Source of the DNA: a virus
Direction: 5' to 3' (one strand)
Length of the DNA stretch: 59,957 bases
Virus record (IMG/VR): IMGVR_UViG_3300047160_003019
Coordinates: 1-59,957 of that record
Position 1 is the stretch's first letter. Every line of letters starts with the position of its first letter. The notes under the pieces were generated by a model. The model had not been told where the DNA came from. It worked only from the letters and a program-made list of their open reading frames with translations, and made no database searches. The translations under genes were made by a program, and so were the position numbers. This document shows, in pieces, positions 1 through 59,957 of the stretch.

Positions 1-31
1 TTTTGGAGTAAACCAAAGGTTTACTCCAAAA
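1..31. repeat. 31-bp perfect palindrome TTTTGGAGTAAACC-AAA-GGTTTACTCCAAAA (same locus as 59860-59890)
   Basis: 14-bp arms are exact reverse complements with a 3-nt loop. Confidence 0.9.
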
Positions 32-32
32 T

Positions 33-45
33 CAGACTGCACACC
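33..45 (+). repeat. 13-bp direct-repeat unit CAGACTGCACACC (wrap copy of 59892-59904)
   Basis: Exact match to four other copies at 59644, 59783, 59820 and 59843. Confidence 0.9.
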
Positions 46-47
46 GA

Positions 48-269
48 TTAAAAGGGCTGGCGGCCCGCAGGGGCAGTGGGAGGATGGGGCTCACGCCCAC
101 CCCCATCTGCCGGGTTATGGATTGGCTCGACTCTGAATGGCATGTTCCGGGTTCCTGGGAATTGCTCCCTATTATCCTGCCACCAGTCAGCAGCGTCAAT
201 CTCATTGTCGAACGGCCCGAAATAGACCGGGCCGATATTGTCAGACTCGACCACCAAAATATAAAGCAT
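48..269 (-). CDS. hypothetical protein (73 aa)
   Basis: Protein-like composition (MLYILVVESDNIGPVYFGPFDNEIDAADWW...) and same strand as neighbours. The SD is weak. Competing ORFs in other frames are Arg/Pro/Ser-rich and look like artefacts. Confidence 0.45.
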   Translation of the reverse strand: MLYILVVESDNIGPVYFGPFDNEIDAADWWQDNREQFPGTRNMPFRVEPIHNPADGGGREPHPPTAPAGRQPF

Positions 270-731: not shown

Positions 732-1454
732 CTAAGCTGCCGGGCGCTTGACCAACCCGAACTGAGCGGCGGATGTTGCCTTTTGTGGCGCGGCCTTTGG
801 GGCTTTGACCACATTGGCCAGTTCGTCAACCCGTGCTTGCGCCCGCTCGCGAAGATGTTCGCCGCGTGAACGACCATCCTCGTAAAGCGGTTCGCCGTTG
901 CCGTCGTGGGTAGCTGCCGCGAATGAGGCGCGCAAGTCCGCGCGAGTCCACGGTTCGCCGTCCAACGTGATGGTATCGGTATCATTGCGCGGAACAACGA
1001 TCGCCTTGTCGGTATCGTCTTTCCACCCTTTGAATGCGTCCGAAACCACCTTGTCGAGGAGGAGGTAGTATTCCCGGTCCACCGGGTCAAGCCGGGGGCG
1101 ATCCGTCTCGGTGATACCGCCGGGGGTCAAGATGAGTTTCCACATCTTATCCGTGGTTTCACGAAACGTTTCGTTGTATGCGTCCGGGTTGGCCTCGCGA
1201 TAGGCTTTCATCTTCTCGCGAGTCTGTTCTTTGGTGTCCCCATCCGCCAAACCCGCGGCTTCCTTCACCGCGTTTTGTACCGCGGTGTAGCACTCGTTGC
1301 TCAACTTGTGCTTGATGGTGCGCTTGACCATCGCAAGCACATTGTCAAAGGGGATGTCATCGAACAGGGTAACGTAGGCGTCGCCAACCGGGGGCGCGAA
1401 AACCAACTCAGGGTTTGCGCGCTCGATTGGAGTAGGCGTGCGAGATTGAGCCAT
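732..1454 (-). CDS. hypothetical early protein (240 aa) ending in ATSAAQFGLVKRPAA
   Basis: AAGGAG SD upstream of the ATG at 1454 and a long clean ORF. The C-terminal motif is shared with three other leftward genes. Confidence 0.8.
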   Translation of the reverse strand: MAQSRTPTPIERANPELVFAPPVGDAYVTLFDDIPFDNVLAMVKRTIKHKLSNECYTAVQNAVKEAAGLADGDTKEQTREKMKAYREANPDAYNETFRETTDKMWKLILTPGGITETDRPRLDPVDREYYLLLDKVVSDAFKGWKDDTDKAIVVPRNDTDTITLDGEPWTRADLRASFAAATHDGNGEPLYEDGRSRGEHLRERAQARVDELANVVKAPKAAPQKATSAAQFGLVKRPAA

Positions 1455-1880
1455 TTGGCTCTCCTTTGGTTTGAGATAGACATAGTACGGGAACCTTTAG
1501 CGTCTTTCGGGTGCCTCGCGACACATTTCTTTTGTGCCGCTTGCGGTTTGCCCGGGGAGCGCGAGATTTGGTTCCCACCTTGGGGAGACCGGGCCTTGCC
1601 CGGCGAAACCATCAACCAACCATCACCTCATCAACATCAAACCCAAAAGGATAATGCGCTTCCCAGGCCCGACAAGCAACTCACAAATGCACGCGTTTGT
1701 GCATGGGAGCCATGCACCGGACGCGGGGCTCGGGGTACAACCTCGGCGTGTGCCGGTGCTCGGCATGGTTGCAGTCCGCGGTCCACAACTGCAGGTTGTG
1801 GCTGCAACTGGTCGGCGAGATCGAGGTCGGAGACGCTCGCCGGAGTTGCACAACCTCGGGTTGAGTGTGGCAGCTGGGTT

Positions 1881-1902
1881 ACTGTGGCAAAAATGCCACA
1901 GT
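1881..1902. other. perfect 9-bp stem / 4-nt loop hairpin ACTGTGGCA-AAAA-TGCCACAGT in the non-coding region
   Basis: Exact inverted repeat. Confidence 0.6.
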
Positions 1903-1941
1903 AAAGTGCCGGGGGACTGGCCCGCAGGGGCCCCTGAGACC

Positions 1942-1961
1942 GGGCGGGGGGGTAGGGGGGG
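1942..1961 (+). other. G-tract GGGCGGGGGGGTAGGGGGGG (possible G-quadruplex former)
   Basis: At least four runs of three or more G within 20 nt on the + strand. Confidence 0.35.
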
Positions 1962-1993
1962 CGAACTTGCTTTATGAAAATTTACAAAACACT

Positions 1994-2013
1994 ATGGCCA
2001 TTATTCAGTAGAA
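1994..2013. promoter_or_regulatory. degenerate copy of the TGGCCAT...TTCA motif (ATGGCCATTATTCAGTAGAA)
   Basis: Partial match to the motif family listed at 2032, 3186, 10466, 20370, 36123, 46213 and 59311. Confidence 0.35.
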
Positions 2014-2031: not shown

Positions 2032-2053
2032 TGGCCATCATTCATTCAATAAA
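2032..2053. promoter_or_regulatory. conserved intergenic motif copy TGGCCATCATTCATTCAATAAA
   Basis: Matches TGGCCAT-N2-TTCATT-N-AATGAA with one mismatch. Lies upstream of the first rightward gene. Confidence 0.6.
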
Positions 2054-2201: not shown

Positions 2202-2849
2202 ATGAAAAGAATGTTGACATTTGGTGCGCTGGCGGCTTTGCTAACCGCTAGTGTTCCGGCGCAAGCGGACCTTATTGCGGACGGGATTGATTACTCACTG
2301 TCCGAGGCGTCAACCGCGAACCCTTTGGTGGACCGGTTTACCTTGACCATAACGGGTATAAATGCCGCCACAGACACAGAAGGTGGCCGGTCCGGGGTGA
2401 ATGCTATCGCACTCAATACGCCTCTCAACTTCTCATCCGCCCAGATGATCACACCACCGACTGGGTACACCTTTGATCCGGGGGGACTCAACTCGTCGGG
2501 GTGCGACGGGAACGGTGCGTTCTATTGTTTTGATAACGGGGCCATCCCACCAACCCCTTCGACCCCGTTCCCAGCCGGTTCATCACTAACCTTTGTGTTT
2601 GATGTAACTACTACTGCCCCCGGCTCATTCGCTGGGTACGATCCGGCGTTCAAGATCGACTGGGTGGGGAGTCAGAATAACTATGATCTGGTGTCCCGGG
2701 AGTTGGCGCCGACTACCGTTACCAATGTACCGGAGCCAGGGTCGCTGGCCATCTTCGGAACCGGACTCATCTTGACGGGGCTGTTGCCCTGGTTTGCCCA
2801 GCGACGTAAACGGTCTGGCCTTCGGCACACTGACGGTCTGCCAGCCTAA
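2202..2849 (+). CDS. secreted PEP-CTERM domain protein (215 aa)
   Basis: N-terminal signal peptide MKRMLTFGALAALLTASVPAQA. C-terminus VPEPGSLAIFGTGLILTGLLPWFAQRRKR gives a PEP motif, a hydrophobic helix and a basic cluster. GGGAGA SD. Confidence 0.85.
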   Translation: MKRMLTFGALAALLTASVPAQADLIADGIDYSLSEASTANPLVDRFTLTITGINAATDTEGGRSGVNAIALNTPLNFSSAQMITPPTGYTFDPGGLNSSGCDGNGAFYCFDNGAIPPTPSTPFPAGSSLTFVFDVTTTAPGSFAGYDPAFKIDWVGSQNNYDLVSRELAPTTVTNVPEPGSLAIFGTGLILTGLLPWFAQRRKRSGLRHTDGLPA

Positions 2850-3187: not shown

Positions 3188-3207
3188 CATTGAATGAATC
3201 ATGGCCA
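3186..3207. promoter_or_regulatory. conserved intergenic motif copy TTCATTGAATGAATCATGGCCA
   Basis: Exact TTCATT-G-AATGAA core plus ATGGCCA, 11 nt upstream of a TTGACA box. Confidence 0.65.
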
Positions 3208-3352: not shown

Positions 3353-3760
3353 ATGAAAGATGTTGACCGGTTGATTAAATTGATCTGTGAACGGGTGGAG
3401 GAGTTGTGGCCGCTGCGCGCCGAGCCCAATCCTGACAACCTCAAGGCGAACGGTCACAGCATCCAGCAATTACACACCGAAACCGATCTCGAGATTAAGT
3501 ACGGTCTGCTGTACCAGCGCGGGAAATGTATTTCGGATAAAGATTTCCTGGCCCGGTACATTGATCCTGGTATAACTTTCCTTAAGAGTTCCGCCGAAAT
3601 CGCTGGCGGTTCGTTAATGGAGCTGGAACTCCCAAGGGGAGTTGAATTCTCGGGGATGGTCGGACCCACCAGACTCGTCGTTATGTATGCAATCCAAACT
3701 GATGATTTCGTCTACCGGTTCGACATCCTAGTACGAGAGTCTCCAAGGGGCTTTGTATGA
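3353..3760 (+). CDS. hypothetical protein (135 aa)
   Basis: ATG at 3353 follows GGAAGGA. A GTG at 3335 is also possible. Confidence 0.7.
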   Translation: MKDVDRLIKLICERVEELWPLRAEPNPDNLKANGHSIQQLHTETDLEIKYGLLYQRGKCISDKDFLARYIDPGITFLKSSAEIAGGSLMELELPRGVEFSGMVGPTRLVVMYAIQTDDFVYRFDILVRESPRGFV

Positions 3761-4398
3761 ATTTGCCAGAGGACCAATCTGGGCTAGTGGACTGCCCATT
3801 TGACCGCCTTCCTACTGGGCGCGGGGGACGGTCCGCCCGCCGAGTCAAATGGACCGTGGTACGGCCCCTGCGGGTGCCTGAGGATATGGATCTGTTGTTC
3901 GAGCGGCACTCCAAACGGCCCCAGACCCTCAAGCATATCCGGCACAATCATCACCAACTCGCACGTCTGATGGCTACTGGGGTGCCCCAGGAAGAAATCG
4001 CCCTCATCACCGGCTACAGCCCCACATACATCTCCCGCATCAAGTCCGACCCGACCTTTGAGGCGCTGGTGGACTACTACCATAACCAGCGAGACGAGGT
4101 GTTTGTTGATGTAGTGGAGCGGATGAAAACGCTGGGGCTATCGACCCTGGACGAACTCCAGCGTCGCTTGGATGATGAGCCTGATGAGTGGTCGCGTCGG
4201 GAGCTGATGGAACTCACCGAGCTGATGCTAATCAAACCGGCGGCCGCCCGGACTCCGATGAACACAACCCAGGCTCAAGCACCTGTGAATGTCGCTGTCA
4301 ACTTCATCACCGCTCAGCCCAAGCCACAGATCATAGATTCGGGGTCACTGCAAGTGACCCCGAAGGTGATTGAGCACGAACCGTCTCGAACTGAATAG
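3757..4398 (+). CDS. HTH-containing protein (213 aa), possibly a DNA-binding regulator or small-terminase-like protein
   Basis: ATGA start/stop overlap with the upstream gene. The segment LARLMATGVPQEEIALITGYSPTYISRI looks like a helix-turn-helix. Confidence 0.6.
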   Translation: MNLPEDQSGLVDCPFDRLPTGRGGRSARRVKWTVVRPLRVPEDMDLLFERHSKRPQTLKHIRHNHHQLARLMATGVPQEEIALITGYSPTYISRIKSDPTFEALVDYYHNQRDEVFVDVVERMKTLGLSTLDELQRRLDDEPDEWSRRELMELTELMLIKPAAARTPMNTTQAQAPVNVAVNFITAQPKPQIIDSGSLQVTPKVIEHEPSRTE

Positions 4399-4407
4399 GG
4401 GGAGTTT

Positions 4408-7053
4408 ATGAATAGGCGTTGGCTGGAGTCCGTCTCTGCGATTGCACTTGGGCTTGTGCTAACGCCGCCCGTGCCAGTGGCCCTGGCACAAAACTTTGGG
4501 AATATCCCTCCTGGTGACATTATCGGGAACCCAACCGCATCACCTGCCCCTGCGCGGCCGATGCCGTTCCCCCTGGGGGCCTTGAACCTAGCGACCACTA
4601 AGGCTGATCTGCAAACCAAGTCAACCGCGACCAGTACTACAGTCGTCCGGACCGGGTTTTATGCTCCTGGGGATGTACCTGCACTTACGTACACGGCCAG
4701 TAACGGTCCATGCACGATTTCGGGGGGTGACGGCGGTTCCCAGGTGCCGTCCGCGGACGGTAAGTGCTGGCTGGCTCAAACCACAGATCCGCTACAGTTC
4801 GGTGCGCGGCCGGGTACGGTAGGGTTTCAGACCGTTACGACTACCGCCGGCAACCCTAACATCACGTTCACTGGGGCTTCATACACATCCGCGGACGTTA
4901 ACAAGTACATAACCATCCTTGGTGCTGGGGGGTTCGAGCAGCGGCTTATTACCCAGATCACTAGCGTATCTGGTCCCAACTCTATTGTGGTGGCCACCGC
5001 TCCAAGCCAGGCGATGAGTGCGTTCTCGACCATAGTTTATAGTGGGTTCGATAGCTCCGGTGCTATCAACGCGGCCATTGTGGCCGGGAACGGTTTCAAG
5101 TCGCCTGTGGTGATCCCCGCTGGCATTTTTATGGCAGCATCTCCGATTCAATGTACCGTTATAAACTATAACAACTTCAATATGGACTCTCCTGGATGCG
5201 TTGGGGTGTCTGGGGCGGGTGCGACCATTATGGCAGTCGCCAATATGGCAGCATCCACGCCCAAGTCTGGTGTTTTGTTTACCATCGGCGGGTTTGCTAA
5301 CAGCGGGGATTTCAGCCAATTCATTCGGAACGGTCAATTTGATGGGCATGGACTCACGCTTGACGCTAACTTTATCGCTAATACTGCGTTCTTTATGCCC
5401 TTTTTCCAGGACTCACACGTTAGTCATTACAACACCAAGAACGCAACCATCGCCAATTTCCGGCTCGGGATGACTGGATCTCCGGTTACGAGTGCAGGGG
5501 TGACATTCAATGAGAACTCCTCGCAACGTGACCTGTTCAATGTTCCGATCACTGGTATTAGCTGTGCGAGTGGGGTGCCCACTATCACTACAACAATAGA
5601 TCATGGCATCGCTACTGGCAGAATAGTCGTCGCGTCCAATGTCAACAGTATCCCTGGGTCTGTTACTGGTGAGGGTCCAACCTTCTTGTTGTGGACCTCG
5701 ACGGGAGCACGGACTGGGACGCTTCATGGAGTCAACTGTACAAGCTGGCCCGCGTATACTGGTGGCGGGTGGTTGAACCTGACGTTCCCATCCAATGCAC
5801 TTATACATACCGTAACTAATGTGACTGGTGCCAACCCAGCCCAGGTCTCGATCTCCCCCGGTAACATAAACATGGCCAATGGTCAGATTTGGTGTGTTTA
5901 TGGAGTTGGCGGAGCGACTACACCGTTTGTGCTTACGAAACCAGCACCTGATGGGTGTTCCACTATTAATAATGTTAGTGGGTCCGGTGCGGATGGCCCT
6001 AATAGCTTCGGATTTACCGCAACTAATAGCACTGGGTTTACCTTTCAGGGTGGTGGGATCGCGTTCCAGCGGATGACACTCGGGTCGATGGGTGTCTACG
6101 AAGAGAATATGTCGGATGTGAACGCATCAAACAACTTTATAACCGGCTCTGAGTATGCTTTCTACGCTGACCCCAACTCTAACGGGTACGATGGTAAATA
6201 CACTAACAACCACGTTTACAACCTCAGTCACGGTTGGTTGATAGCTGGTCATTACTTGGGCGGACACAATACACTGACAGGTGAGCAGTGTGATGCACCG
6301 TTAGTGTTTTGTGGGCAATTCTTTCACGGTGGAAGCAGCTCACAAGGTAGTTCGCTACAAGGTGGCACCTTCGGATTCATTCTCGATAATGCGACCTGGT
6401 TATGGCGTCTTGATACTTGCAGTGGTTCTGACTGCGTGTTTAACAATGTCAGTGATTTCACTTCGACCGGGGATAAGTTGTTTGGGCGGAGCAATACTCT
6501 TCGGGTCAATGAGCTTTCTAATCTGTACCTGTCTGGGAATGTAGCGTATTACGCCTCGATCCCGAACTATCATTCGTTTGGTAATCAGCCAGGCGGGTTT
6601 GTTCTCTATTCGATGCCTGACAGCGCGATCGGAACCTCAACCCAAAAGAATACTGGTCTAGGGCCATTTAACTTCACTAGCACGACTGCGGTAGCGGCAG
6701 GGTTCGGTCCTAGCTGCTCTTTCATACCTGTCTACCATACCGGTGGCACTTTCACAATGACTGGAACCATCGGGAATAATACTGTGGGGGACGGGGCGTA
6801 TGGAGGACTCTACCTGTTTACGACGCCACCAGCGGCTGGCGGGTCTTTGAGTGGGAGCTTCGCGATAACCGGGGAGTCTGGTTTGGCGGCAACCGCGTCA
6901 ACAACCACACGCTACCCGTTCACATTTACCGGTAGCCTACCGCAAACAACCCTTAAGCCAGGGACAACGTACTATATGGATGCGGGGGTTCGTGTGACCG
7001 GTGGCGGCACCGGCTCGATCCAAGACATTACCTGCACACTGACCGAGAACTAA
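4408..7053 (+). CDS. beta-helix (pectate-lyase-fold-like) protein: tailspike/depolymerase candidate with a signal-peptide-like N-terminus (881 aa)
   Basis: GGGGGAG SD. N-terminus MNRRWLESVSAIALGLVLTPPVPVALA|QN. Long G/T/S/N-rich strand repeats and an LQFGARPG segment, as seen near the start of pectate_lyase_3-type domains (from memory). Confidence 0.7.
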   Translation: MNRRWLESVSAIALGLVLTPPVPVALAQNFGNIPPGDIIGNPTASPAPARPMPFPLGALNLATTKADLQTKSTATSTTVVRTGFYAPGDVPALTYTASNGPCTISGGDGGSQVPSADGKCWLAQTTDPLQFGARPGTVGFQTVTTTAGNPNITFTGASYTSADVNKYITILGAGGFEQRLITQITSVSGPNSIVVATAPSQAMSAFSTIVYSGFDSSGAINAAIVAGNGFKSPVVIPAGIFMAASPIQCTVINYNNFNMDSPGCVGVSGAGATIMAVANMAASTPKSGVLFTIGGFANSGDFSQFIRNGQFDGHGLTLDANFIANTAFFMPFFQDSHVSHYNTKNATIANFRLGMTGSPVTSAGVTFNENSSQRDLFNVPITGISCASGVPTITTTIDHGIATGRIVVASNVNSIPGSVTGEGPTFLLWTSTGARTGTLHGVNCTSWPAYTGGGWLNLTFPSNALIHTVTNVTGANPAQVSISPGNINMANGQIWCVYGVGGATTPFVLTKPAPDGCSTINNVSGSGADGPNSFGFTATNSTGFTFQGGGIAFQRMTLGSMGVYEENMSDVNASNNFITGSEYAFYADPNSNGYDGKYTNNHVYNLSHGWLIAGHYLGGHNTLTGEQCDAPLVFCGQFFHGGSSSQGSSLQGGTFGFILDNATWLWRLDTCSGSDCVFNNVSDFTSTGDKLFGRSNTLRVNELSNLYLSGNVAYYASIPNYHSFGNQPGGFVLYSMPDSAIGTSTQKNTGLGPFNFTSTTAVAAGFGPSCSFIPVYHTGGTFTMTGTIGNNTVGDGAYGGLYLFTTPPAAGGSLSGSFAITGESGLAATASTTTRYPFTFTGSLPQTTLKPGTTYYMDAGVRVTGGGTGSIQDITCTLTEN

Positions 7054-10446: not shown

Positions 10447-10470
10447 GGACATGACGCAAGCGTCATGTCC
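10447..10470 (+). terminator. stem-loop GGACATGACG-CAAG-CGTCATGTCC directly after the stop codon
   Basis: 10-bp perfect stem, followed by ATTATTCATT (only moderately T-rich). Confidence 0.4.
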
Positions 10471-10488
10471 ATTATTCATTCGATGAAA
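10466..10488. promoter_or_regulatory. conserved intergenic motif copy TGTCCATTATTCATTCGATGAAA
   Basis: Same layout as the copy at 36123, read on the - strand. It is followed about 10 nt later by CAGTAAATCGGAG and the start codon. Confidence 0.55.
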
Positions 10489-10516: not shown

Positions 10517-10732
10517 ATGGCTGAAGGCGAAATGAACCAAGACCAGATCAATGAGAAGCTGGTTGAGCTGGCGAAGGTGGCCAGTGAGATCAAGACAGCA
10601 GACACAACCTTGTCGGCGATGCTGGAGACGATCTTGAACTCACCCCTTGTTGCCCACGCGAGGGCAGCAGTAGAGGGGTCCAAAGAGGCATCAGCACCGC
10701 CACCCAAGGCGGAGACTCGCGAACGTAGGTAA
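10517..10732 (+). CDS. small coiled-coil protein (71 aa); small-terminase candidate by position only
   Basis: Immediately upstream of the large terminase. SD GGAGCGAAAG. Confidence 0.5.
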   Translation: MAEGEMNQDQINEKLVELAKVASEIKTADTTLSAMLETILNSPLVAHARAAVEGSKEASAPPPKAETRERR

Positions 10733-10739
10733 GCGAGTC

Positions 10740-12077
10740 GTGCAAGTCTCTGCGGATTTCCCCGCACCGTTCCAGATATTGTTTCAACCGCGGCGGTACA
10801 AAGTACTGTATGGAGGGCGCGGTGCGGGAAGATCATGGGCATGCGCCAGGGCTCTGCTTATTAAGGGGACCCAGGCGCCATTACGCGTGCTATGTGCTAG
10901 AGAGTTACAAAATTCGGTCGGGGACTCTGTGCATAGACTACTCGCTGACCAGATTTCTGGACTTGGGCTTGACAGCTTTTACGAAGTCCAAGCATCGAGG
11001 ATCTTGGGGCAGAACGGTACAAACTTCAGCTTTGAAGGAATAAAAAACAACATTACCAAGATCAAGAGTTATGAAGGTATCGACATCTGTTGGGTTGAGG
11101 AGGCTCACAAGGTCAGTCGCAATTCGTGGGGGATACTGATACCAACCGTACGGAAGGAGGACTCCGAAATTTGGATGACCTTCAACCCGGAATTGGAAAC
11201 TGATTATACCTACAAGAGGTTTGTGAAGGAGGCGGATGAAAGTCTTAGTTTAGTCATCAAAACCACCTGGCGAGATAATCCGTTCTTTCCAGACGTGCTG
11301 ATGAAGGAAATGGAGGCTGAAAAGGCTCGAGACTATGACTCGTATATGAACATTTGGGAAGGGTTCTGTCGACAGGTACTAGAAGGGGCAGTTTACGCCA
11401 AAGAACTGCGGAAGGCACAGGAAGAGGGGCGGATCACCAGAGTTCCATGGGGTCGCGAAGCGCCGGTCGATGTGTTCGTGGATTTGGGTCGGGCAGATGC
11501 TACCGCAATGTGGTTCGCGCAGCGGCTTACCATGCAGTATAGGTTGATTGATTTCTATAGTGCGACGGGGGAGGATATAATACACTATATCAAGTATTTA
11601 CAGAACAGGGAATATATTATTGGTAAGGTTTGGTTACCCCACGATGCGTTTGCTAAGCAGCTAGGGAGTAAACGGTCTATACAAGAGATTTTCAAGGAGT
11701 ACGGGTTCAAAATTGAGAGGGTTCCCAAGCTAAGTTTGACGGATGGGATCAATGCTGCCCGCCTAATATTCCCAAACTGCTGGTTTGATGAGGACCGGTG
11801 TGAAGAGGGTATTCAGGCCCTGCGGCATTATCGGTATCGGATCGTTGATGGACAGTACTCAAATGAACCTTTGCATGACAAGGCGTCGGACCCAGCGGAT
11901 GCGTTCCGATACCTGGCGGTTGGGTTCCGTGACCGTCAGACAGGGGTGGCCACCAAGGTTCTGGAGAAGTTGGTGGCTCTGAGTGAGCAGAGGGATCAAA
12001 GGAAGAGGGATGAGTACGATGAGTGGATGATGGGGGGCCGGGAGACTAGGGCACGGGGCACCAGCTGGATGAGATGA
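10740..12077 (+). CDS. terL: terminase large subunit (445 aa, GTG start)
   Basis: Walker A-like YGGRGAGRSW and Walker B-like DICWVEEAH. The C-terminal half carries acidic nuclease-type motifs (VDLG..DAT, HD). Size is right. Confidence 0.9.
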   Translation: MQVSADFPAPFQILFQPRRYKVLYGGRGAGRSWACARALLIKGTQAPLRVLCARELQNSVGDSVHRLLADQISGLGLDSFYEVQASRILGQNGTNFSFEGIKNNITKIKSYEGIDICWVEEAHKVSRNSWGILIPTVRKEDSEIWMTFNPELETDYTYKRFVKEADESLSLVIKTTWRDNPFFPDVLMKEMEAEKARDYDSYMNIWEGFCRQVLEGAVYAKELRKAQEEGRITRVPWGREAPVDVFVDLGRADATAMWFAQRLTMQYRLIDFYSATGEDIIHYIKYLQNREYIIGKVWLPHDAFAKQLGSKRSIQEIFKEYGFKIERVPKLSLTDGINAARLIFPNCWFDEDRCEEGIQALRHYRYRIVDGQYSNEPLHDKASDPADAFRYLAVGFRDRQTGVATKVLEKLVALSEQRDQRKRDEYDEWMMGGRETRARGTSWMR

Positions 12078-13495: not shown

Positions 13496-15790
13496 ATGAG
13501 GGGGCAAGGAGCACCTGATCCAAGTGTGGCCGCTCTGAGAAGTATGGGCGAGCTGGACATAATGGAGGAGATGAGGGAGCGGTTTAAGCAGTGCTCTGAG
13601 TGGGAAGCGACGTGTCGAAAGAAGATGATGGAGGATCTGAAGTTTGCGGATGCTGACGCTTTCAATGGATACCAGTGGCCCGACAACATCAGACGTACCA
13701 GGGATCTGTCAGACAAGCCGTGCCTGACCCTCAATGTGGTCCGCCAGCACAATCTCAAGATTATCAATGATATGCGGAAGGCGAAGGAGTCATGTAAGAT
13801 ACTGGGGATGGGGAATGGAGCTACCCAGGAGTCGGCAGAGGTTATTAAGCAGATAATCCGGCATATCGAGTACAACTCGAAGGCGCAACGGAACGCCTAT
13901 ACGCCTGCGCGTGGGTATCAGGTTAAGTGCGGGATCGGGTGGTGGCGTATCATAACGGACTATGAGTCCAACGACTCGTTTGATCAAGAGATTTATATCA
14001 AATCAGTCCCTGACCCGTTCTCGGTTTATATGGACCCTGACTGCCAGGAACCTGACTGTTCGGATGGGCGGTTCGCATTCGTTTTCAGTTTCATGCCTAG
14101 GGAGCTGACGGAAGCGTTGATACCTGACTATCCGTGGCAGGTTGGTGCCCCGCGGATGCCAATCGGGATCGCACCTGGGGAGTCTTTCTTTATTGAGAAG
14201 GACCATTGGCTGGTAGCGGAGTATTTCCGGAAGGTCCCGGTCCAAGACACCCTGATAAGTTTCATCACCCCAATGGGGGAGCGACTGACTATCAGGGAAA
14301 GCCGTTTACCAGCACAGGTCGCGAGCGAGCTGAAACAGAACGAGAGGGTGATGGTTCGGAAAGTTACGGATCAGCAGGTTGAGTGGAAGCTGGTGGTTGG
14401 GGATGAGATTGTAGATGAGACTATCTGGCCGGGCAAATACATCCCACTGATCCGGTGTATTGGAGAGGAAACGGTCACGGAAGGGATATTGGACCGGAAG
14501 GGTCATACTCGGGCGTTAACAGACGCGCAACGGATGTTCAACTACAATGCGTCGGCGAGTGTTGAGTTTGGGGCGTTGCAGACCAAGACCCCTTGGCTAG
14601 CGGCGGCCAAGTCCATTGAGGGACTGGAAGGATTGTGGAATACAGCCAACACTGAGAATCATAGCGTGCTGGTTTGGAACCATGTGGATGATGACAACCC
14701 AGAAGCAGTAATCCCCCCACCGCAGCGGATTGAGCCGCCAAGCTCAAGCTCGGCGTTTGAACAGGGGATGCAAACCGCTTTCATGCAGATGATGATGACT
14801 AGCGGACAATATGCCAATCAGCAGGGGCAGATGGGGAATGAGCGGACGGGGACTGCCATTCAGGAAAGGTTACGAGAGGGTGAGAGCGCAACGTACCATT
14901 TTACCGATAACTATGAGGACGCCCTGGTATACACCTACCAACAGATCATTGATCTGATCCCCAAGGTGTATGACACGAGAAGAGTTAAGCACATATTGGC
15001 GGATGACGGGATTGAGATGGAGATTGAGCTTGATCCAACTGCTATGCAGCCGTATATGCAGCAGATGGATCGGCAGAATAACATTATCCGCCGGGTACTC
15101 AACCCGACTATGGGCACGTATGAAGTGGCAGCATCAATCGGGCCGAATGTGGAGACCAAGCGGCAGGAGGCAGTTGAAGACCTGACCCAGATATTGACCG
15201 AGGCTCCAGCACTAACGGCTATCATTGGAGACATACTGCTGCGGAATATGGACTTTGATGATGCGCAGGAAGCAGCGATGCGGCTGCGCAGGATGGTGCC
15301 GCCGCAAGCACTAGGACAAGGACCGTCACAGAACGAACAGCAGATGGCGCAACAGCTCCAGGCACTCCAGGCCAATCTGGCTAAGGCGCTTGAGCAGCAT
15401 GGGAAGGATGCGATCAAGCTGCAAGGTAAGGACCAGATGCGTGAGATTGATGTATATGAGGCGGAGACTAATAGGATTAAGGCGTTGGCCCCAATGCTGC
15501 CGATGGATCAGCCGGGACTCGAGCATCTCATTCACCAGTTAATCTCGGACTCTCTTGAAACCACTCTAATGCCCATTTTGGATGCGAATATACATGGGGT
15601 AGGCTCAGGAGCAGCTGCGGAGCAATCTGGTGGGGTGGGGGAAGGGGATGCTCCCCCTATTCCAGGGGCGCGGAAAGCACCTGACGGGGAATGGTACATT
15701 CTTGATCCGACACGTCGGACCAGGTACTTGAGGATTGGACCGCTGGCACAGGAGAGGCCACCGCCAGGATCCGGGAGTACAGGGAGCTAA
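13496..15790 (+). CDS. portal protein (764 aa)
   Basis: Size and position support the call. The N-terminal segment W..D..FADADAFNGYQWPDNIRRTRD..KPCLTLN resembles P22-gp1-type portals, from memory. Confidence 0.85.
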   Translation: MRGQGAPDPSVAALRSMGELDIMEEMRERFKQCSEWEATCRKKMMEDLKFADADAFNGYQWPDNIRRTRDLSDKPCLTLNVVRQHNLKIINDMRKAKESCKILGMGNGATQESAEVIKQIIRHIEYNSKAQRNAYTPARGYQVKCGIGWWRIITDYESNDSFDQEIYIKSVPDPFSVYMDPDCQEPDCSDGRFAFVFSFMPRELTEALIPDYPWQVGAPRMPIGIAPGESFFIEKDHWLVAEYFRKVPVQDTLISFITPMGERLTIRESRLPAQVASELKQNERVMVRKVTDQQVEWKLVVGDEIVDETIWPGKYIPLIRCIGEETVTEGILDRKGHTRALTDAQRMFNYNASASVEFGALQTKTPWLAAAKSIEGLEGLWNTANTENHSVLVWNHVDDDNPEAVIPPPQRIEPPSSSSAFEQGMQTAFMQMMMTSGQYANQQGQMGNERTGTAIQERLREGESATYHFTDNYEDALVYTYQQIIDLIPKVYDTRRVKHILADDGIEMEIELDPTAMQPYMQQMDRQNNIIRRVLNPTMGTYEVAASIGPNVETKRQEAVEDLTQILTEAPALTAIIGDILLRNMDFDDAQEAAMRLRRMVPPQALGQGPSQNEQQMAQQLQALQANLAKALEQHGKDAIKLQGKDQMREIDVYEAETNRIKALAPMLPMDQPGLEHLIHQLISDSLETTLMPILDANIHGVGSGAAAEQSGGVGEGDAPPIPGARKAPDGEWYILDPTRRTRYLRIGPLAQERPPPGSGSTGS

Positions 15791-20369: not shown

Positions 20370-20392
20370 TTCATTGAATGAATGTTGGCCAT
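20370..20392. promoter_or_regulatory. conserved intergenic motif copy TTCATTGAATGAATGTTGGCCAT
   Basis: Exact core, 2 nt upstream of a TTGACA box. Confidence 0.65.
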
Positions 20393-20394
20393 TA

Positions 20395-20423
20395 TTGACA
20401 CGGTTTCGCAATGGTGGTATGGT
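20395..20423 (+). promoter_or_regulatory. sigma70-type promoter candidate TTGACA-17-TATGGT
   Basis: Perfect -35, 17-nt spacer and a 4/6 -10. About 20 nt upstream of the scaffold gene's SD. Confidence 0.5.
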
Positions 20424-36122: not shown

Positions 36123-36145
36123 TTCATTCGATGAATGATGGCCAT
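36123..36145. promoter_or_regulatory. conserved intergenic motif copy TTCATTCGATGAATGATGGCCAT
   Basis: Intergenic, about 33 nt upstream of the ATG at 36090. Confidence 0.6.
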
Positions 36146-43917: not shown

Positions 43918-44886
43918 TCAGTAGTCTAGCCTCTCGAAGGTTGGGTCCCACACCCTACGCTTGTACTGGGTTTTTAGTAGTAAGTTGGCTGCGTTGGTGG
44001 AGGGTGCTGCGCACACCTGGCGGAAGGGGCAGCCGCCATACATACCGCAAGCACTATCGTTCATCGGCCAATTGTCATGGAAGGCGCAATCTTCCAGCTG
44101 TTCCAACCAGAACCCCAGGTTGCGATGCCACTCGTCCAACATGGAGTCAGTACGTTGGACGATACCACGGGCGAAGACAGAGAACGATTGGACAACCTGG
44201 CAAGCATCAACCAGTATGCCTTCTGTGTCAACGCCGAATGCATTGCGGGCTGCGATAGTGTAGATAGTAAATTGGTTGTCAGGTGTGAACTTGGCAAACC
44301 AATACTCACCAATGGTGTGTTGGGTAGTTTTAACGTCTGTAACGTACCGCGCCCCATTAAGTTCACCTATGCGGTCAAGGCGACCGCATAGGATGAACTC
44401 CTCACCGGTGGTTGCGGACTTGTAACCGGTCCCAATGCGGAACGGGAGTTCGACCGCCAGACGGTCCGAATTACCGACACGGACTGTTTGGATCGGGTCA
44501 TCTTGGTACTTATCCAAGTACCATACTATGGTTCGGATTAGGGTGTACCGATTCTTGGCCTTGTTGTCAGAGTCCCAGGGTCTGTTCCGTTCCTTGTCCC
44601 AGGTCTCGATCATGATCTGTTTTATGACTTCCAGCTGGGCTTCACGGTGCGCCAGCTGGTTGTTGAGACGGAGGGTCCAATACAACTCAACGGCACGGTG
44701 AAGCATGGTCCCGAATGTCAGGTGGACAGATTCCATTGCGGGTTGGAACCCATAGACTATGCTATAGTAGTAACGCCTCGGGCAGACCTTGAACTCATTG
44801 AGGCTACTGGAGTCCAGAAAGGTTTGCAGCATCTTGTTGGCCTTCGAGAACGAACCGTTCTCAAAGGTCTCAAAGGGGAAACTCAT
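43918..44886 (-). CDS. Cas4/RecB-like PD-(D/E)XK exonuclease with a Cys4 cluster (322 aa)
   Basis: N-terminal CPRRYYY, YVTDVKTT (D-x-K) and C-terminal CGMYGGCPFRQVC. Confidence 0.85.
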   Translation of the reverse strand: MSFPFETFENGSFSKANKMLQTFLDSSSLNEFKVCPRRYYYSIVYGFQPAMESVHLTFGTMLHRAVELYWTLRLNNQLAHREAQLEVIKQIMIETWDKERNRPWDSDNKAKNRYTLIRTIVWYLDKYQDDPIQTVRVGNSDRLAVELPFRIGTGYKSATTGEEFILCGRLDRIGELNGARYVTDVKTTQHTIGEYWFAKFTPDNQFTIYTIAARNAFGVDTEGILVDACQVVQSFSVFARGIVQRTDSMLDEWHRNLGFWLEQLEDCAFHDNWPMNDSACGMYGGCPFRQVCAAPSTNAANLLLKTQYKRRVWDPTFERLDY

Positions 44887-45158
44887 GACGGTTTCCTAAC
44901 CAAACCCAGCTGGGCTGCACTAGTTAGTCTTTTAGGTGGTCCGATGGGTGCCGAAGGCGATGCGGATGGCTGTCGGACTCGGACTTGTCTGACGGTTTCG
45001 GTGGCTGCCAACCGATCTCGCAACTCTTGCATGTGAGTTACGATGTCCATCAGGGACTCCCCCAGAGTTTCCGGGTCGCGGGAGAATAGCTCCTGGAGCG
45101 ACAGCCGATCCACCTGACGAAGTGCGTTGGACTGAGGGATGGGATAGTCATCAGACAT
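44883..45158 (-). CDS. small early protein (91 aa) ending in LTSAAQLGLVRKPS
   Basis: The start at MSDDYP overlaps the upstream stop. Carries the shared C-terminal motif. Confidence 0.7.
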   Translation of the reverse strand: MSDDYPIPQSNALRQVDRLSLQELFSRDPETLGESLMDIVTHMQELRDRLAATETVRQVRVRQPSASPSAPIGPPKRLTSAAQLGLVRKPS

Positions 45159-45390
45159 CTTCCAACTCCTCTTCATCATCCTCCAGGTCGAAGTCTTGGG
45201 CAGTGTGTTCGGCAATCCGCTGGCGGAGTTCCATCACACCTTGGTGGATGTATTCGCGGCAGACATGACCACATCCGACTCTTCGATGCCTCGGGGCACC
45301 AGCCCCGAAATAGCGTTCCAAGAACTCCCAATCTTCGTCATATATTAAGACGTGACGTGGAGTTGTTGGTCGATCAGTCTTCTTTACCAT
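45151..45390 (-). CDS. possible ribbon-helix-helix protein with an acidic tail (79 aa)
   Basis: RHVLIYDEDWEFLERYF looks like an RHH strand-helix. The C-terminus is DFDLEDDEEELEDV. Confidence 0.6.
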   Translation of the reverse strand: MVKKTDRPTTPRHVLIYDEDWEFLERYFGAGAPRHRRVGCGHVCREYIHQGVMELRQRIAEHTAQDFDLEDDEEELEDV

Positions 45391-45661: not shown

Positions 45662-45726
45662 CTTCGCTCCGATTTACTAGAAGTCGCTCAGCTTTTTTGC
45701 CTAATGAAGGAACAAATCGTGAACGA

Positions 45727-46212: not shown

Positions 46213-46234
46213 TGGCCATCGTTCATTCAATGAA
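46213..46234. promoter_or_regulatory. conserved intergenic motif copy (- strand reads TTCATTGAATGAACGATGGCCA)
   Basis: Exact core, immediately upstream of the TTGACA box. Confidence 0.65.
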
Positions 46235-53784: not shown

Positions 53785-54017
53785 TGACAGGTGCCGCTGC
53801 GCGAACAACGCATCGGGGCGTGTTCGCGCAGCGGGGCGGCCGCGGACTCCTGGATGCCTTGGAGTATCGGAGTCCCGCCGCCGGTCGTGGTTCTTTCAAG
53901 GTAGCACGCTAGCGTGCTACCTTGGGGACACTCGACGACTTGTCCCAGGCGAATGGTCACACGCTAAGACCGGGTCGCCCACCCTAATTTGAGTTGCGCT
54001 TTCAGTGCAACTCAAAT
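53785..54017 (-). other. highly structured GC-rich non-coding spacer with a 14-bp stem (53794-53834), a 28-bp palindrome (53897-53924) and an 11-bp stem (53987-54017)
   Basis: Exact inverted repeats. No plausible ORF. Confidence 0.6.
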
Positions 54018-54457
54018 CCGCCGCATGTACGCAAGAAGTCTGCGAACTCCTGTATGGTTGAAACGTTGAATGTATACATAGTCTCGAATGGACGGACCTT
54101 CCCAGCACCGTCACACTTGTTGCATTTCATGTTTTTGTGACCTGTGTTCCAGTCATTGCGAGTGCCACTAGCCCTACAGAGATCACACGGTTCATCTGGA
54201 AGCGCACTGATACGCGCTTCTCGATCTTTAGCATACTGCTTAGTACGGTCCATGTTGAGTTCGGTTTGAAGCACAGAGGCCAACTCTTTGGCCTCTGTGC
54301 TTGTCATACTGCCATTATTGAAACCCCAATAGCCCTGATGGTCGGAGTTCTCACAGACCTGCGGGGCGACCTCGAAGCAGTAGATTGCGATGGGCCGCCA
54401 ACTCCACCAGGATCTGCTGAAGATGGTTCCGTTCTGTCCGATTACATCCACTCCCAT
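54002..54457 (-). CDS. protein with DnaJ-type CxxCxGxG zinc-finger motifs (151 aa)
   Basis: CDLCRASGT and CNKCDGAGKV. ATG after the GGCGACCGAAGGGAGACTCGA cassette. Confidence 0.65.
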   Translation of the reverse strand: MGVDVIGQNGTIFSRSWWSWRPIAIYCFEVAPQVCENSDHQGYWGFNNGSMTSTEAKELASVLQTELNMDRTKQYAKDREARISALPDEPCDLCRASGTRNDWNTGHKNMKCNKCDGAGKVRPFETMYTFNVSTIQEFADFLRTCGGFELH

Positions 54458-54549
54458 TCGAGTCTCCCTTCGGTCGCCTCGACCCACCATTAGGTCACAG
54501 CGTGATGCAGTACACACGGTACTGCATACCGCTTAAACCTAAATAGATG

Positions 54550-56250: not shown

Positions 56251-56646
56251 TTACTTGCGTTTTAGCCCCAATTGGGCGGCGCTAGTTAACGGTCCTTTAT
56301 TGACAGGTGCCGCTGCGCGAACTGGCGGTTCATTGGCGGTGCGCAGCAGCCCCTGCCCGGATGTGTAAGGGCGTGCATGTTTGGTATAGTATTCACCAGC
56401 AGGCCGCGCGTTCTTGATTGGTAGTTTGTAATACGGTGCGTCTGCTGGCCGTGCCCTGTTGATGGCGGTCTCGAATGCCATCAACAGTCCGCCCATACCG
56501 ATACCGCCGTGGATGAGTGGGGATGGGTCCGCAGTGAATATGAACTGTCCGTTGCGGTCAAGGATTGCGAGGTCACCGGACTCGAGGGGGACCACAATAC
56601 AGGAACAGGTGGAAAGAGCGGCTAGAGCTTCTTCTTTCGGGGTCAT
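56251..56646 (-). CDS. small early protein (131 aa) ending in LTSAAQLGLKRK
   Basis: Start set at MTPKEE. Carries the shared C-terminal motif. Confidence 0.7.
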   Translation of the reverse strand: MTPKEEALAALSTCSCIVVPLESGDLAILDRNGQFIFTADPSPLIHGGIGMGGLLMAFETAINRARPADAPYYKLPIKNARPAGEYYTKHARPYTSGQGLLRTANEPPVRAAAPVNKGPLTSAAQLGLKRK

Positions 56647-56810
56647 GGGGCTTCGCCCTCCTAGTGGAGATGTGGATACTGATAGTAGTTGCGGTAGAAG
56701 CGAGGGCGAAGGCCCCACCAATAGATAAGATGGTAGCCGACTCGGAGACCACGGTAATCGGTACGGAGACCGACACGGTAGCGTGATATGCCAATGTGTT
56801 TCATGATCCG

Positions 56811-57497
56811 TTACCTCAATTCGTATGCGGTTCGCTCGTTGATGAAATCTTCTGATGCGTTAATGAAGGTTGGCTCGATCCAAACCTGACGCACCTGAGC
56901 ACGTCCAGTTCCGACGCGGGCATTACGGATGTGCCCGCGACGAAGATGCGGACGGGGAGAGGCGTGATGTCCACCACCTGGCTCAAGAGATGAGGCAGGT
57001 GGGGTTCTGAGGATAACAGTTCGATAGATGCCACGTTTCGCGGCCTTTCCGATACCGAGACGTGCGGCCTTATGGAGTTTCTCTTCTCGGATGACGTTGC
57101 GGGTGGCGAGGGCTACGATCAGGAACTGATATGCGTTGGCCGCACATATTGATCCCATATCAGAATTATTTTTGTTAAGGGTATGTGTTACATCTTTCCA
57201 TCCGTCGCGGTTCTCGGTCTCTATAAAGTAACCCTCGAACTTGTAATTGGTGAACTTTATTTTGGTTAACCAGCGGGATAATCTGTAGTTGGCCTCATCT
57301 TGCAGACGAGATCCCCATCCCTCAAGCACAACATTGAGAAATATGTTTGTGGGGCCAACGATGTCAAAGTCTGGGTATGGTGGCCTAGCAATACCGAGCG
57401 TTACCATGTCATCCCAAGTTGCTTTGACCTCTTCAACAGAGAAGGCCTTGATAAAGGCCTCAGAGATGATGAACTCGGTGCGATCGAACCTGCTCAT
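56811..57497 (-). CDS. hypothetical protein (228 aa)
   Basis: ATGA overlap with the upstream gene and an AAGGTGG SD. Confidence 0.75.
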   Translation of the reverse strand: MSRFDRTEFIISEAFIKAFSVEEVKATWDDMVTLGIARPPYPDFDIVGPTNIFLNVVLEGWGSRLQDEANYRLSRWLTKIKFTNYKFEGYFIETENRDGWKDVTHTLNKNNSDMGSICAANAYQFLIVALATRNVIREEKLHKAARLGIGKAAKRGIYRTVILRTPPASSLEPGGGHHASPRPHLRRGHIRNARVGTGRAQVRQVWIEPTFINASEDFINERTAYELR

Positions 57498-58006
57498 GGG
57501 GCCACCTTTTTGATCCCGAGTTGGGAGGCGGATTGGATACGGCCCTTAATGAGATTGCCCCTGGTGTCAAACTTGCGAGATTTCGGAGGCCCCGCGTCTG
57601 CACGGGCTTCCGAAATGCAGAAGGGGCAATTGGATTGGAGTTTGGTTTTGGCTGAGCGTCCACTGTGGTTTTCCCAGTGACGAATTTGGGCCTCGGTTGG
57701 GTGCCCATCTTCACCCAAACACATGACCTCATCATGAAGGATGAGTTCCCGCCGGAACTCAAGGATGCGGCGTAGGGACTCAAGGTCATTGATTTGGACA
57801 ACATGACGGAGAGGTGAACCCTTCTCATGGAGTTCAGCCTGAATGTGACCTGTGGATGGGTTGAGGGTCACAAAGATATAGAGCTGTGGTGGGTGCTTCG
57901 ACTTCGGACTGAGATGGTCCGAAGTCGTAACGCGCAGCGGCTCCTGATTGGGTTTGGTCTTTTTGTGCCGAGCGACTGATAAGGAGCGAGAGGAGCGAGA
58001 GGGCAT
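57494..58006 (-). CDS. early protein (170 aa) ending in IQSASQLGIKKVAP
   Basis: CCTTGGAGTAACCCAATG start cassette. Carries the shared C-terminal motif. Confidence 0.75.
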   Translation of the reverse strand: MPSRSSRSLSVARHKKTKPNQEPLRVTTSDHLSPKSKHPPQLYIFVTLNPSTGHIQAELHEKGSPLRHVVQINDLESLRRILEFRRELILHDEVMCLGEDGHPTEAQIRHWENHSGRSAKTKLQSNCPFCISEARADAGPPKSRKFDTRGNLIKGRIQSASQLGIKKVAP

Positions 58007-59310: not shown

Positions 59311-59341
59311 GGCCATGTTTCATTGAATGAATGATGGCCAT
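59311..59341. promoter_or_regulatory. full palindromic version of the conserved motif: GGCCAT-GT-TTCATT-G-AATGAA-TG-ATGGCCAT
   Basis: Both half-sites carry the GGCCAT flank. Lies about 60-90 nt upstream of the first early start codon. Confidence 0.65.
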
Positions 59342-59399
59342 GGTTGCAAACGTTCGCAAACGTTTGGTGGGTACGTTATCAAATGTAAGGGTGGAATGC

Positions 59400-59599
59400 A
59401 AGGGGTTTACGTTCATACATCAAAGGACGAACGTTCGGGTCAGGGTGTTCAGTAGGTGGGTGGGGTACTGTGCTCCCCCTCCCCCTCCCTTCCCTTCTCT
59501 TAGTAGTATAAAAAAAAAAATAGAAAGAAACTAAGAGAATAACGCAGTAATAGCGGGAATTACTGGAGGGGGTGTGAGATGTATGAACGTAAACCCCTT
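59400..59599. repeat. 22-bp perfect inverted repeat (AAGGGGTTTACGTTCATACATC at 59400-59421 and its reverse complement at 59578-59599) bracketing 156 bp
   Basis: Exact reverse complements. The interior holds a polypyrimidine tract, an A11 run and the CGAACGTTCG palindrome. Confidence 0.85.
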
Positions 59600-59643
59600 A
59601 TATTCCATTGGTACATTAGATAATGTTTACCCTAACATTAGAT

Positions 59644-59904
59644 CAGACTGCACACCAATCAATTACTGCACCTTTCGTTCACGATTTGTTCCAATCTCAG
59701 GCACAAAAAAAGCCCGGGGAGCCAACTGCGGCTCCCCGGCTTCATTCATACTAAGTGAGTTGAGTTGAGTTGGTAAGTAAAATCAGACTGCACACCGCTT
59801 CGCGCCAAATACTATGAAGGCAGACTGCACACCAAATAAAAAACAGACTGCACACCAATCTTTTGGAGTAAACCAAAGGTTTACTCCAAAATCAGACTGC
59901 ACAC
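59644..59904 (+). repeat. array of five perfect 13-bp direct repeats CAGACTGCACACC (59644, 59783, 59820, 59843, 59892)
   Basis: Exact copies, all in the same orientation, in a gene-free region. Confidence 0.9.
59705..59739 (-). terminator. rho-independent terminator for the short leftward operon (1454 to 48)
   Basis: 10-bp GC-rich stem CCGGGGAGCC/GGCTCCCCGG with a 6-nt loop, followed on the - strand by T7. Confidence 0.6.
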
Positions 59905-59957
59905 CGATTAAAAGGGCTGGCGGCCCGCAGGGGCAGTGGGAGGATGGGGCTCACGCC
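59860..59957. repeat. second copy of the terminal overlap (identical to 1-98)
   Basis: Verbatim identity. Confidence 0.9.

Follow-up and report, generated by a model that had tools for sequence, protein, structure and literature searches.

The replication origins of lambda, P1, RK2 and R6K are as a rule built from iterons, an AT-rich element and inverted repeats, and in lambda transcription through the origin is also required. Clustered direct repeats are also known in the pac sites of SPP1 and P1, and arrays of same-orientation repeats at a single locus are characteristic of centromeres of types Ib and II; binding at a single locus is typical of origins, centromeres and pac sites alike. Headful pac sites (SPP1 pacL/pacR, P1, P22/F116) contain repeat clusters that are bound by an oligomeric small terminase, and they lie in or beside the terminase genes. 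The array described here belongs to an uncultivated soil phage (IMG/VR record IMGVR_UViG_3300047160_003019, positions 1 to 59,957; this whole stretch of 59,957 nucleotides is referred to as the window), where it is part of the principal non-coding control region. Like lambda ori, P1 oriR, RK2 oriV and the R6K gamma ori, it has several same-orientation repeats in the size range of 13-19 bp at one locus, close to inverted repeats and AT-rich DNA; it is set in transcribed DNA, as the lambda origin is, and neighbouring copies in relatives are packed 18-19 bp apart. Unlike these origins it comes with no recognisable initiator gene, with irregular spacing, with no DnaA boxes that we could see and with a replisome of the PolA/primase type. 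The large terminase of the phage is of the headful kind, but the array lies 4-11 kb away from the terminase genes. It is a known kind of element, an iteron-like array, here found in a poorly sampled soil phage group.

Caulobacter phage Kuura (OQ067476) has the same two-arm layout as the window and a homologous replication module (32-36%). In its inter-arm region, which separates the first early genes from the late arm, Kuura likewise has an A12 run, a palindrome, an inverted repeat and short direct repeats. The motif of these repeats, GGGCAGT, is unrelated, however, and the whole set adjoins a direct terminal repeat of 606 bp. Since the packaging genes of Kuura are not homologous to those of the window, its terminal-repeat arrangement cannot simply be carried over. 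The clade combines packaging genes of the F116/P22 type with a replication module of the Kuura/LUZ24 type.

Positions 1-97 of the window are the same as 59861-59957, so that the unique sequence amounts to 59,860 bp. The genes between about 2.2 and 35.6 kb are encoded on the plus strand and include the large terminase (10740-12077, plus strand; Terminase_3, PF04466, 2e-43) and a P22-type portal (13496-15790, plus strand). Among characterised phages, the large terminase is closest to that of the F116-like phages (42%), which have terminally redundant, circularly permuted genomes and headful packaging that begins close to the terminase genes (PMC5217972). A long early/replication operon runs leftward on the minus strand from 59250 to 35624 and encodes ArdC, a UvrD helicase, a PD-(D/E)XK nuclease, a Sak4-like protein, a ParB-methylase, a UDG-family protein, a family-A DNA polymerase (PolA) and a DUF3987 primase-like protein; the start codon of its first gene is at 59250-59248. 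A second, short leftward operon (1454 to 48) consists of three small minus-strand ORFs. From the stop codon of the short operon (48, the same position as 59908), a non-coding stretch of about 650 bp extends to where the early/replication operon starts. It contains an A11 run (59510-59520) and is richer in AT than any other part of the genome neighbourhood: between 59500 and 59890 the GC content is 27-47% in most 60-nt intervals, several of them with 27-45%, compared with about 53% for the genome overall, the exception being the G+C-rich stem of a terminator with 58%. The GC skew is confounded with gene orientation and gave no independent origin signal.

The 13-mer CAGACTGCACACC is present in five distinct perfect copies, all of them on the plus strand of the window, with start-to-start spacings of 140, 37, 23 and 49 bp. 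Read on the early (minus) strand, the repeat is GGTGTGCAGTCTG. The proximal copy 1 is located at 59644-59656, the distal cluster comprises copy 2 (59784-59796), which is upstream of the terminator on the minus strand, copy 3 (59821-59833), copy 4 (59844-59856) and copy 5 (59893-59905, the same DNA as window 33-45). A degenerate half copy at 59665-59672, GGTGCAGT on the minus strand and ACTGCACC on the plus strand, lies 18 bp from copy 1 and has the same GTGCAG core as the repeats of the relatives. With the half copy included, the spacings are 23, 37, 49 and 122+18 bp and are out of helical phase. Over the whole window and on both strands, no further copy was detected with zero or one mismatch, and the two scattered matches with two mismatches (6280 and 25678) are at chance level (1.9 expected). 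The observed total of eight sites with up to two mismatches was attained in none of 100 shuffled sequences. Since the two-mismatch sites elsewhere do not exceed chance, a protein that binds the repeat would act at this single locus.

Copy 5 is located 2 nt beyond the stop codon of a 73-aa ORF (48-269) beside the array, which is lineage-specific and missing from the variant contig L025. The array itself was considered as coding DNA and rejected, since the spacings are not multiples of three and the overlying ORFs are not conserved. A search for promoters near the copies, done partly by eye, revealed no consistent -10/-35, sigma-54 or ECF pattern at a fixed distance on either strand.

Between copies 4 and 5 lies a perfect palindrome with two 14-nt arms and a 3-nt centre, TTTTGGAGTAAACC-AAA-GGTTTACTCCAAAA (59861-59891, equal to window 1-31), for which a DNA hairpin energy of -13 kcal/mol (z = -7.1) was calculated. 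It is not an intrinsic terminator, since no T-run follows the stem: on either strand the run before the stem is T4 and the one after it A4. A protelomerase target (telRL) was rejected on account of the non-palindromic 3-bp centre, the lack of a match to a protelomerase family and the contigs that read through the site. The centre GTAAACC-AAA-GGTTTAC resembles the gix/hix sites of the Gin and Hin invertases (…AAACC-AA/GA-GGTTT…); the hix/gix centre is 2 bp long and the one found here 3 bp, the palindromes of the relatives are unlike hix, and all contigs have the same orientation. Invertase systems of the Hin/Gin type use two inverted 26-bp sites and a serine invertase, and an invertase site was rejected here in view of the single site, the 3-bp core and the lack of a recombinase gene; a comparison of the 213-aa HTH protein with the Hin DNA-binding domain was not significant (E = 0.74).

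The leftward intrinsic terminator (59705-59742, minus strand) consists of a stem at 59714-59739 with 11 pairs, nine of them G-C, followed by T7, and with an energy of -15.5 kcal/mol (z = -4.7) it has the properties of an intrinsic terminator. The hairpin and the T-run are kept in the related contigs L022, L087 and L088, while the stem sequences differ. These results agree for the most part with the sequence-only reading, which had described five perfect same-orientation 13-mers (a count over the genome and both strands, with none at zero or one mismatch, bears out its remark that no copy was noticed elsewhere), a perfect 31-bp palindrome between copies 4 and 5 and a leftward terminator (59705-59739) between copies 1 and 2. 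Its position for copy 1 was right, those for copies 2-5 and for the palindrome were one base too low, and the first spacing, given there as 139 bp, was measured as 140 bp.

Just upstream of the terminator lies an (AACTC)3-ACTTAGTA tract (59749-59771, minus strand), which is kept in L087/L088 and absent in L022. Directly past the terminator T-run we found a GAAC-N7-GAAC box, GGAACAAATCGTGAACGA (59675-59692, minus strand), and on the early strand copy 1 of the repeat lies downstream of both the terminator and this box. The GAAC-N7-GAAC motif proper (59677-59691, minus strand; 45710-45724, plus strand) has five sites genome-wide compared with 1.8 expected. L022, L087 and L088 retain both GAAC halves; the N7 spacer shows a single change in L087, and in L087 and L088 an A replaces the flanking G before the first GAAC. 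A direct repeat of this kind (GTTC-N7-GTTC on the other strand) in a promoter region marks LexA (SOS) boxes of the alphaproteobacterial type. GAAC-N7-GAAC is the form of the Caulobacter LexA operator (PMC9578287, Table 1), which may not be that of the host of this phage. It might also be possible that the box is a phage-specific site instead of a LexA box, since its second copy in the window (45709-45726, plus strand) is an identical 18-mer.

Closer to the early operon, an imperfect inverted repeat with arms of 49 nt (59373-59626) encloses 156 nt and folds into a hairpin of about 250 nt. It contains the A11/T11 run at 59510-59520 and a G-run/C-run at 59473-59494, and its core of T-run, ATACTACTA and G-run is kept in all three lineages. 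Approximately 70-90 nt upstream of the first early gene lies a dispersed motif copy, TGGCCATCATTCATTCAAT (59322-59340, minus strand), with the dyad TTCATT-C-AATGAA. The Rfam search returned no family at the gathering threshold and only noise at E values up to 5.

Relatives of this phage are few: for the two flanking proteins, only one or two other clusters exist among 5.8 billion proteins, showing that the phage group is rare. Searching IMG/VR with these two proteins returned nothing, and motif patterns run against IMG/VR, GTDB genomes and JGI metagenomes gave only chance single-copy matches and the same population. Protein searches led to just two further lineages, on contigs of 1.3-3.9 kb: L022, in which the flanking first early protein is 67% identical, and L087/L088, in which the flanking 240-aa protein is about 50% identical. 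The order of elements on the early strand is common to all. The last stop codon is followed by the same-strand repeat cluster with its palindrome or palindromes, then (in L087, L088 and the window only) by an (ACTCA)n tract, then by the hairpin and T-run terminator and the box (G/A)GAACAAA(T/C)CGTGAACGA. Proximal, often degenerate copies come next, followed by the long inverted repeat around a T11-13 run, ATACTACTA and the G-run, and finally by the first early gene, which is also visible in L022.

The motifs in L022 and L087/L088 are ATTGGTGTGCAGTCTGATTTT and AAAGGTGCAGCCA(A/T)T. The window carries GGTGTGCAGTCTG, L087/L088 carry AAAGGTGCAGCCA(A/T)T and L022 carries both kinds. In the four sequences, 1576 nt in all, we counted 24 GTGCAG cores on the early strand and none on the opposite strand; the genome background would predict 0.43. 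In the relatives, neighbouring copies are often 18-19 or 22 bp apart. Palindromes are found amid the repeats in every lineage, but their sequences are lineage-specific: GGAGTAAACC-AAA-GGTTTACTCC in the window, CCAAATA-N10-TATTTGG in L022 and, in L087/L088, the loopless perfect dyad ATTAACAT|ATGTTAAT, which occurs two or three times. The outer TTTTGGA...TCCAAA is common to the window and L087/L088. Because the array is conserved across diverged lineages, we regard it as a selected feature and not as a recent local duplication.

The best reading of the five 13-mers is that they are this lineage's version of a conserved, one-stranded, iteron-like array with a GTGCAG core. We predict that the array probably consists of protein-binding sites on DNA. 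The identity over 13 bp, the single orientation, the restriction to one locus and the packing at 18-19 bp in the relatives suggest candidate sites for a monomer, and the lineage-specific perfect dyads point to a second, dimeric binder. The iteron-type array proposed from the sequence alone is upheld in that the array is conserved, one-stranded and confined to a single locus in three lineages; the role as an origin that was proposed along with it met with no initiator gene.

That this locus is the replication origin of the phage is the interpretation that we favour, tentatively. It is an AT-rich site between operons, one of them the replication operon; repeats and dyads occur here together with a T/A run suited to melting, transcription comes in from upstream, and the sites are unique in the genome. 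Five same-orientation repeats and the half copy are confined to it. Against an origin speak the irregular spacing in the window and the lack of an initiator family: among about 60 ORFs, Pfam and PHROG scans revealed no cognate protein of the initiator type (Rep, lambda O/HTH_36 or the P4 alpha C-terminal domain), and a tblastn search with an HTH_36 initiator from IMG/VR gave no match in the window. PDB sequence searches with the 881-aa, 213-aa, 240-aa and 104-aa proteins returned nothing significant, and the AlphaFold models of the adjacent conserved 240-aa and 104-aa proteins (pLDDT 59 and 56) were too poor to use; the phage may still encode an unrecognised initiator. In addition, phages with a PolA and primase-helicase module usually start replication from transcripts and not from iterons, and we know of no replisome of the PolA and primase type that uses iterons.

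If the locus is an origin, a sequence-specific protein would coat copies 2-5 (the distal cluster) as well as one or more proximal copies, and a second, dimeric and lineage-specific protein would occupy the palindrome. Together they might build a nucleoprotein complex beside easily melted DNA, namely the AT-rich spacers and the T11/A11 run within the inverted-repeat element of 250 nt. This DNA could be opened or primed with the help of transcription, which would come either from the upstream operon or from a promoter at the GAAC-N7-GAAC box. Such a locus would serve as replication origin and possibly also in episomal maintenance.

The 13-mer itself has a counterpart among iterons. In 14 IMG/VR contigs (L001-L014), 24-bp tandem iterons within a gene for an HTH_36 initiator-like protein contain CAGACTGCACACC, and with copy 4 of the window the identity reaches 17 nt. 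These iterons have an exact 24-bp period, lie in coding sequence and belong to an unrelated phage family, and the initiator-like gene has no homologue in the window. A comparable chance match was found in a Planctomycete tandem repeat. The identity is thus probably a coincidence; the contigs show that the 13-mer can serve as an iteron, while the match itself may be due to chance.

A purely transcriptional role would fit the sequence equally well, since operator-like dyads and a LexA-type box are present in the same region. An operator array for early-region transcription, acting in immunity or in a switch from early to middle expression, is a possibility nearly as likely as the origin. Here a regulator would bind to the repeats and a dimer to the palindrome, and by occupying or looping the DNA around the terminator and the GAAC-N7-GAAC box they might switch the long early operon. 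The region is evidently a hub of transcription. The conserved terminator, the box of the Caulobacter-type SOS form and the TTCATT-C-AATGAA dyad upstream of the first early gene are in line with this, as are the copies to either side of the terminator and the box, an arrangement found in the window, in L022 and, in degenerate form, in L087. Furthermore, the palindromes vary between lineages as heteroimmune operators do, and the F116-like phages, to which the terminase is related, are temperate and episomal. For this phage, however, the genome scans recognised no repressor, integrase or other lysogeny gene, and neither tRNA nor attP was found in them. Five to nine monomer sites in the same orientation would be unusual for an operator, no copy overlaps a recognisable promoter, and the sites are absent from the other promoters of the genome. 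Should the array be an origin or a master operator, it would provide a handle for finding the binding protein and an insight into how the early programme starts in this uncultivated clade of soil podophages.

Four of the five copies follow a stop codon and precede the terminator of its operon, so that they are transcribed and might function at the RNA level. In this case the 3'-untranslated RNA of the upstream operon would include the distal repeats and the hairpin, which would bind a protein or fold and in this way govern read-through of the terminator (by nut-like antitermination or by attenuation), processing or stability. The distal cluster and the palindrome have this position, after the last stop codon and before the same-strand terminator, in each of the three lineages, the strict 24:0 orientation is what an RNA signal requires, and the hairpin is kept while its sequence varies across lineages; a weak match to a Q-like antiterminator (54002-54517, E = 0.0013) would also be compatible. 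On the other hand, the loopless perfect dyads that recur two or three times in L087/L088 are typical of DNA operators, the proximal copies lie beyond the terminator, a linear 13-nt motif in five copies is unlike known nut, put and RAT sites, and no Rfam family matched even at E values up to 5. We therefore regard an element at the RNA level as unlikely.

A more speculative proposal, to which we give rather little credence as a whole, extends the origin reading to all 650 bp: the one-stranded GTGCAG repeats, the lineage-specific palindrome, the terminator, the SOS-type GAAC-N7-GAAC box and the 250-nt hairpin element, with its T-run and then its G-run, would together make up a phage origin of a kind not described before, in this uncultivated soil podophage clade. 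A damage-inducible transcript would cross the T-run/G-run and the resulting stable RNA-DNA hybrid would prime the family-A polymerase, by analogy with ColE1, T7 and mitochondria. The repeats would load an unrecognised phage protein that sets copy number or ensures episomal maintenance.

A pac site, on whose repeats the small terminase would oligomerise and direct the first headful cut, is improbable. The clustered direct repeats recall SPP1 and P1, and an HTH protein encoded at 3757-4398 is homologous to a Kuura protein annotated as 'putative small terminase', but this annotation has no PHROG support. Candidate small subunits are encoded at 10517 or 3757, and the array is 3.9 kb from the gene of the HTH protein (3757) and 10.8 kb from the large terminase gene (10740), whereas pac sites of the F116, P22 and SPP1 types are found in or beside the terminase genes. 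In addition, five assemblies cross the locus unbroken.

Less probable again is a centromere-like partition site of an episomal prophage, with an adaptor of the ParR or ParB type coating the repeats. The layout is like that of type Ib and type II centromeres and F116-like phages can persist as episomes, but no ParA or ParM ATPase was found, the sole ParB_N domain is fused to a DNA methylase and no par-like operon is located downstream of the array.

The window begins and the assembly breaks exactly at the first base of the palindrome, as had been pointed out from the sequence alone. Fragments of the same population from other samples were retrieved by exact-protein look-ups, and five contigs cross the junction: L025 (JGI Ga0310916) and L026, L027, L028 and L031 (ENA, k141 assemblies). 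The bridging contigs are 100% identical through the palindrome and all five repeats, and all five have one extra C in the C-run at window 96-98 (C3/C4 polymorphism). Two further contigs, L016 and L030, have their breaks at 96 and 98; the end of the window is at 97. The C3 and C4 alleles first differ at base 99, a base that is first included in the 99-mer beginning at base 1. We infer that the forked 99-mer ending at 98 was dropped, leaving a contig end at 97 and an overlap of k-2 for k = 99. The start of the window at the first base of the palindrome is accordingly accidental, a consequence of the C3/C4 polymorphism and k = 99.

A physical end, with the array flanking a T7-like direct terminal repeat and the 97-bp overlap being real, is thus very improbable: Kuura, with which the replication module is shared, does have four GGGCAGT copies, the A12 run and the palindrome just outside the boundary of its 606-bp terminal repeat in the equivalent inter-arm region, and a collapsed longer repeat would be compatible with the assembly alone, but five contigs read through the junction, the right end falls on the polymorphism where other contigs also break, 97 equals k-2, and terminase and portal are F116/P22-like and not Kuura-like. 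The 97-bp overlap was rejected as a true terminal repeat on these grounds. Taken together, the array is very probably neither a terminus nor a pac site. The genome terminus or T7-like terminal array suggested by the sequence-only reading does not hold, given the bridging contigs and the explanation of the end by polymorphism and k; its packaging site is not supported, the terminase being closest to those of F116-like headful phages and encoded 10.8 kb away, and nothing supports the idea that this DNA enters the cell first.

A contig end at a striking palindrome thus mimicked a terminus, a coincidence that a length polymorphism of one base and the k of the assembler explain. For other metagenomic 'terminal repeat' calls, it can likewise be checked whether other assemblies cross the junction and whether the overlap equals k-2. 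Contig ends also recur at 59351/59352 (L024, L025 and L027), where they fall on a tandem AACGTTTGC(G/A) duplication that L026 and the window read through. This is probably another polymorphic site, like the C-run, and not a physical end.

A dispersed motif, TGGCCATCATTCATTCAAT(GAAA), which contains the dyad TTCATT-C-AATGAA, was found at seven sites in the window when up to three mismatches were allowed, compared to an expectation of 0.03. These sites are located at 2032-2050(+), 3189-3207(-), 10466-10484(+), 20373-20391(-), 36126-36144(-), 46213-46231(+) and 59322-59340(-), and two further sites, 1996-2007(+) and 20387-20398(+), are listed with them. The sites appear to be intergenic, several of them are followed within about 10 nucleotides by a hairpin, and the first early gene as well as the first late-arm gene are each preceded by a perfect copy. 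The motif is also present in L022, a contig of a diverged lineage with a homologous control region. It is probably the main operator or a promoter-associated site of the phage, or a mobile promoter/stem-loop cassette.

The 18-mer GGAACAAATCGTGAACGA occurs in two identical copies, at 59675-59692(-) and 45709-45726(+), both with a T-run directly before them. Its form, GAAC-N7-GAAC, is that of SOS operators of the Caulobacter type, and it is kept in three lineages, with an altered spacer in L087, a contig of the second diverged lineage. This hints at SOS control, with a host LexA that recognises GAAC-N7-GAAC. Such a host could belong to the Alphaproteobacteria or, going by what Mazon et al. (2006) reportedly found, to the Acidobacteria. 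The samples containing this phage may be soil metagenomes. The first ORF of the late arm, 2202-2849(+), encodes a signal-peptide-like N-terminus and, at the C-terminus, a weak PEP-CTERM match that just missed the Pfam cut-off (E = 8.6e-4, 19.8 bits versus 20.7); such a motif would indicate that the host possesses an exosortase system.

A second large non-coding region, which is G+C-rich (window 1455-2000; L022 1-340), separates the short leftward operon from the late arm. It shares blocks with L022, such as CGCCCCCCTACCCCC and CCACAACCTGCAG, and contains several hairpins; a search of Rfam returned no match for it. In a further element (window 59373-59626; L022 2474-2700; L087 2280-2371), a T11-13 run lies together with ATACTACTA and a G-run between the arms of an imperfect inverted repeat of 49 nucleotides. 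The element forms a hairpin of about 250 nucleotides (RNA z = -9.0 in the window and -6.7 in L022), inner hairpins are maintained by different sequences, and the consensus fold is better for the + strand (-51 versus -37 kcal/mol). It may act as a structured RNA, as a cruciform or a site of unwinding, or as a region where a primer forms.

Four early proteins that are otherwise unrelated, encoded at 732-1454(-), 57494-58006(-), 56251-56721(-) and 44883-45215(-), have the common C-terminal motif SA(A/S)Q(L/F)G(L/I)(K/V)(K/R), followed by 0-3 residues. Among the homologues of the 240-aa protein in three lineages, S-A-x-Q-F-G-L-x-K is invariant. The motif looks like a peptide with which all four would dock to a single partner, such as a clamp or a hub protein.

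The 213-aa HTH protein (3757-4398(+)) is homologous to Kuura_002 of a Caulobacter phage (33% over 96 aa, E = 1e-17), whose annotation as 'putative small terminase' is not backed by PHROG. The next protein, of 881 aa (4408-7053(+)), had no matches in Pfam, PHROG or PDB.

The 14 IMG/VR contigs L001-L014, from a phage family unrelated to this phage, carry an initiator gene (HTH_36 and a weak DnaT-like match) with internal 24-bp tandem iterons, the unit CAGACTGCACACCAGCAGTGCAAA occurring perfectly two or three times, accompanied by degenerate copies. For many of them this array is the break point or close to it.

Within the phage's own population, the C-run at 96-98 is C4 in five other contigs (C3/C4 polymorphism, 96-99), and L025 has a 51-nucleotide deletion (window ~235-285) through which the 73-aa ORF 48-269 loses its start. 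Three assemblies (L024, L025, L027) share a contig end at 59351/59352, which falls on a tandem AACGTTTGC duplication (window ~59345-59365).
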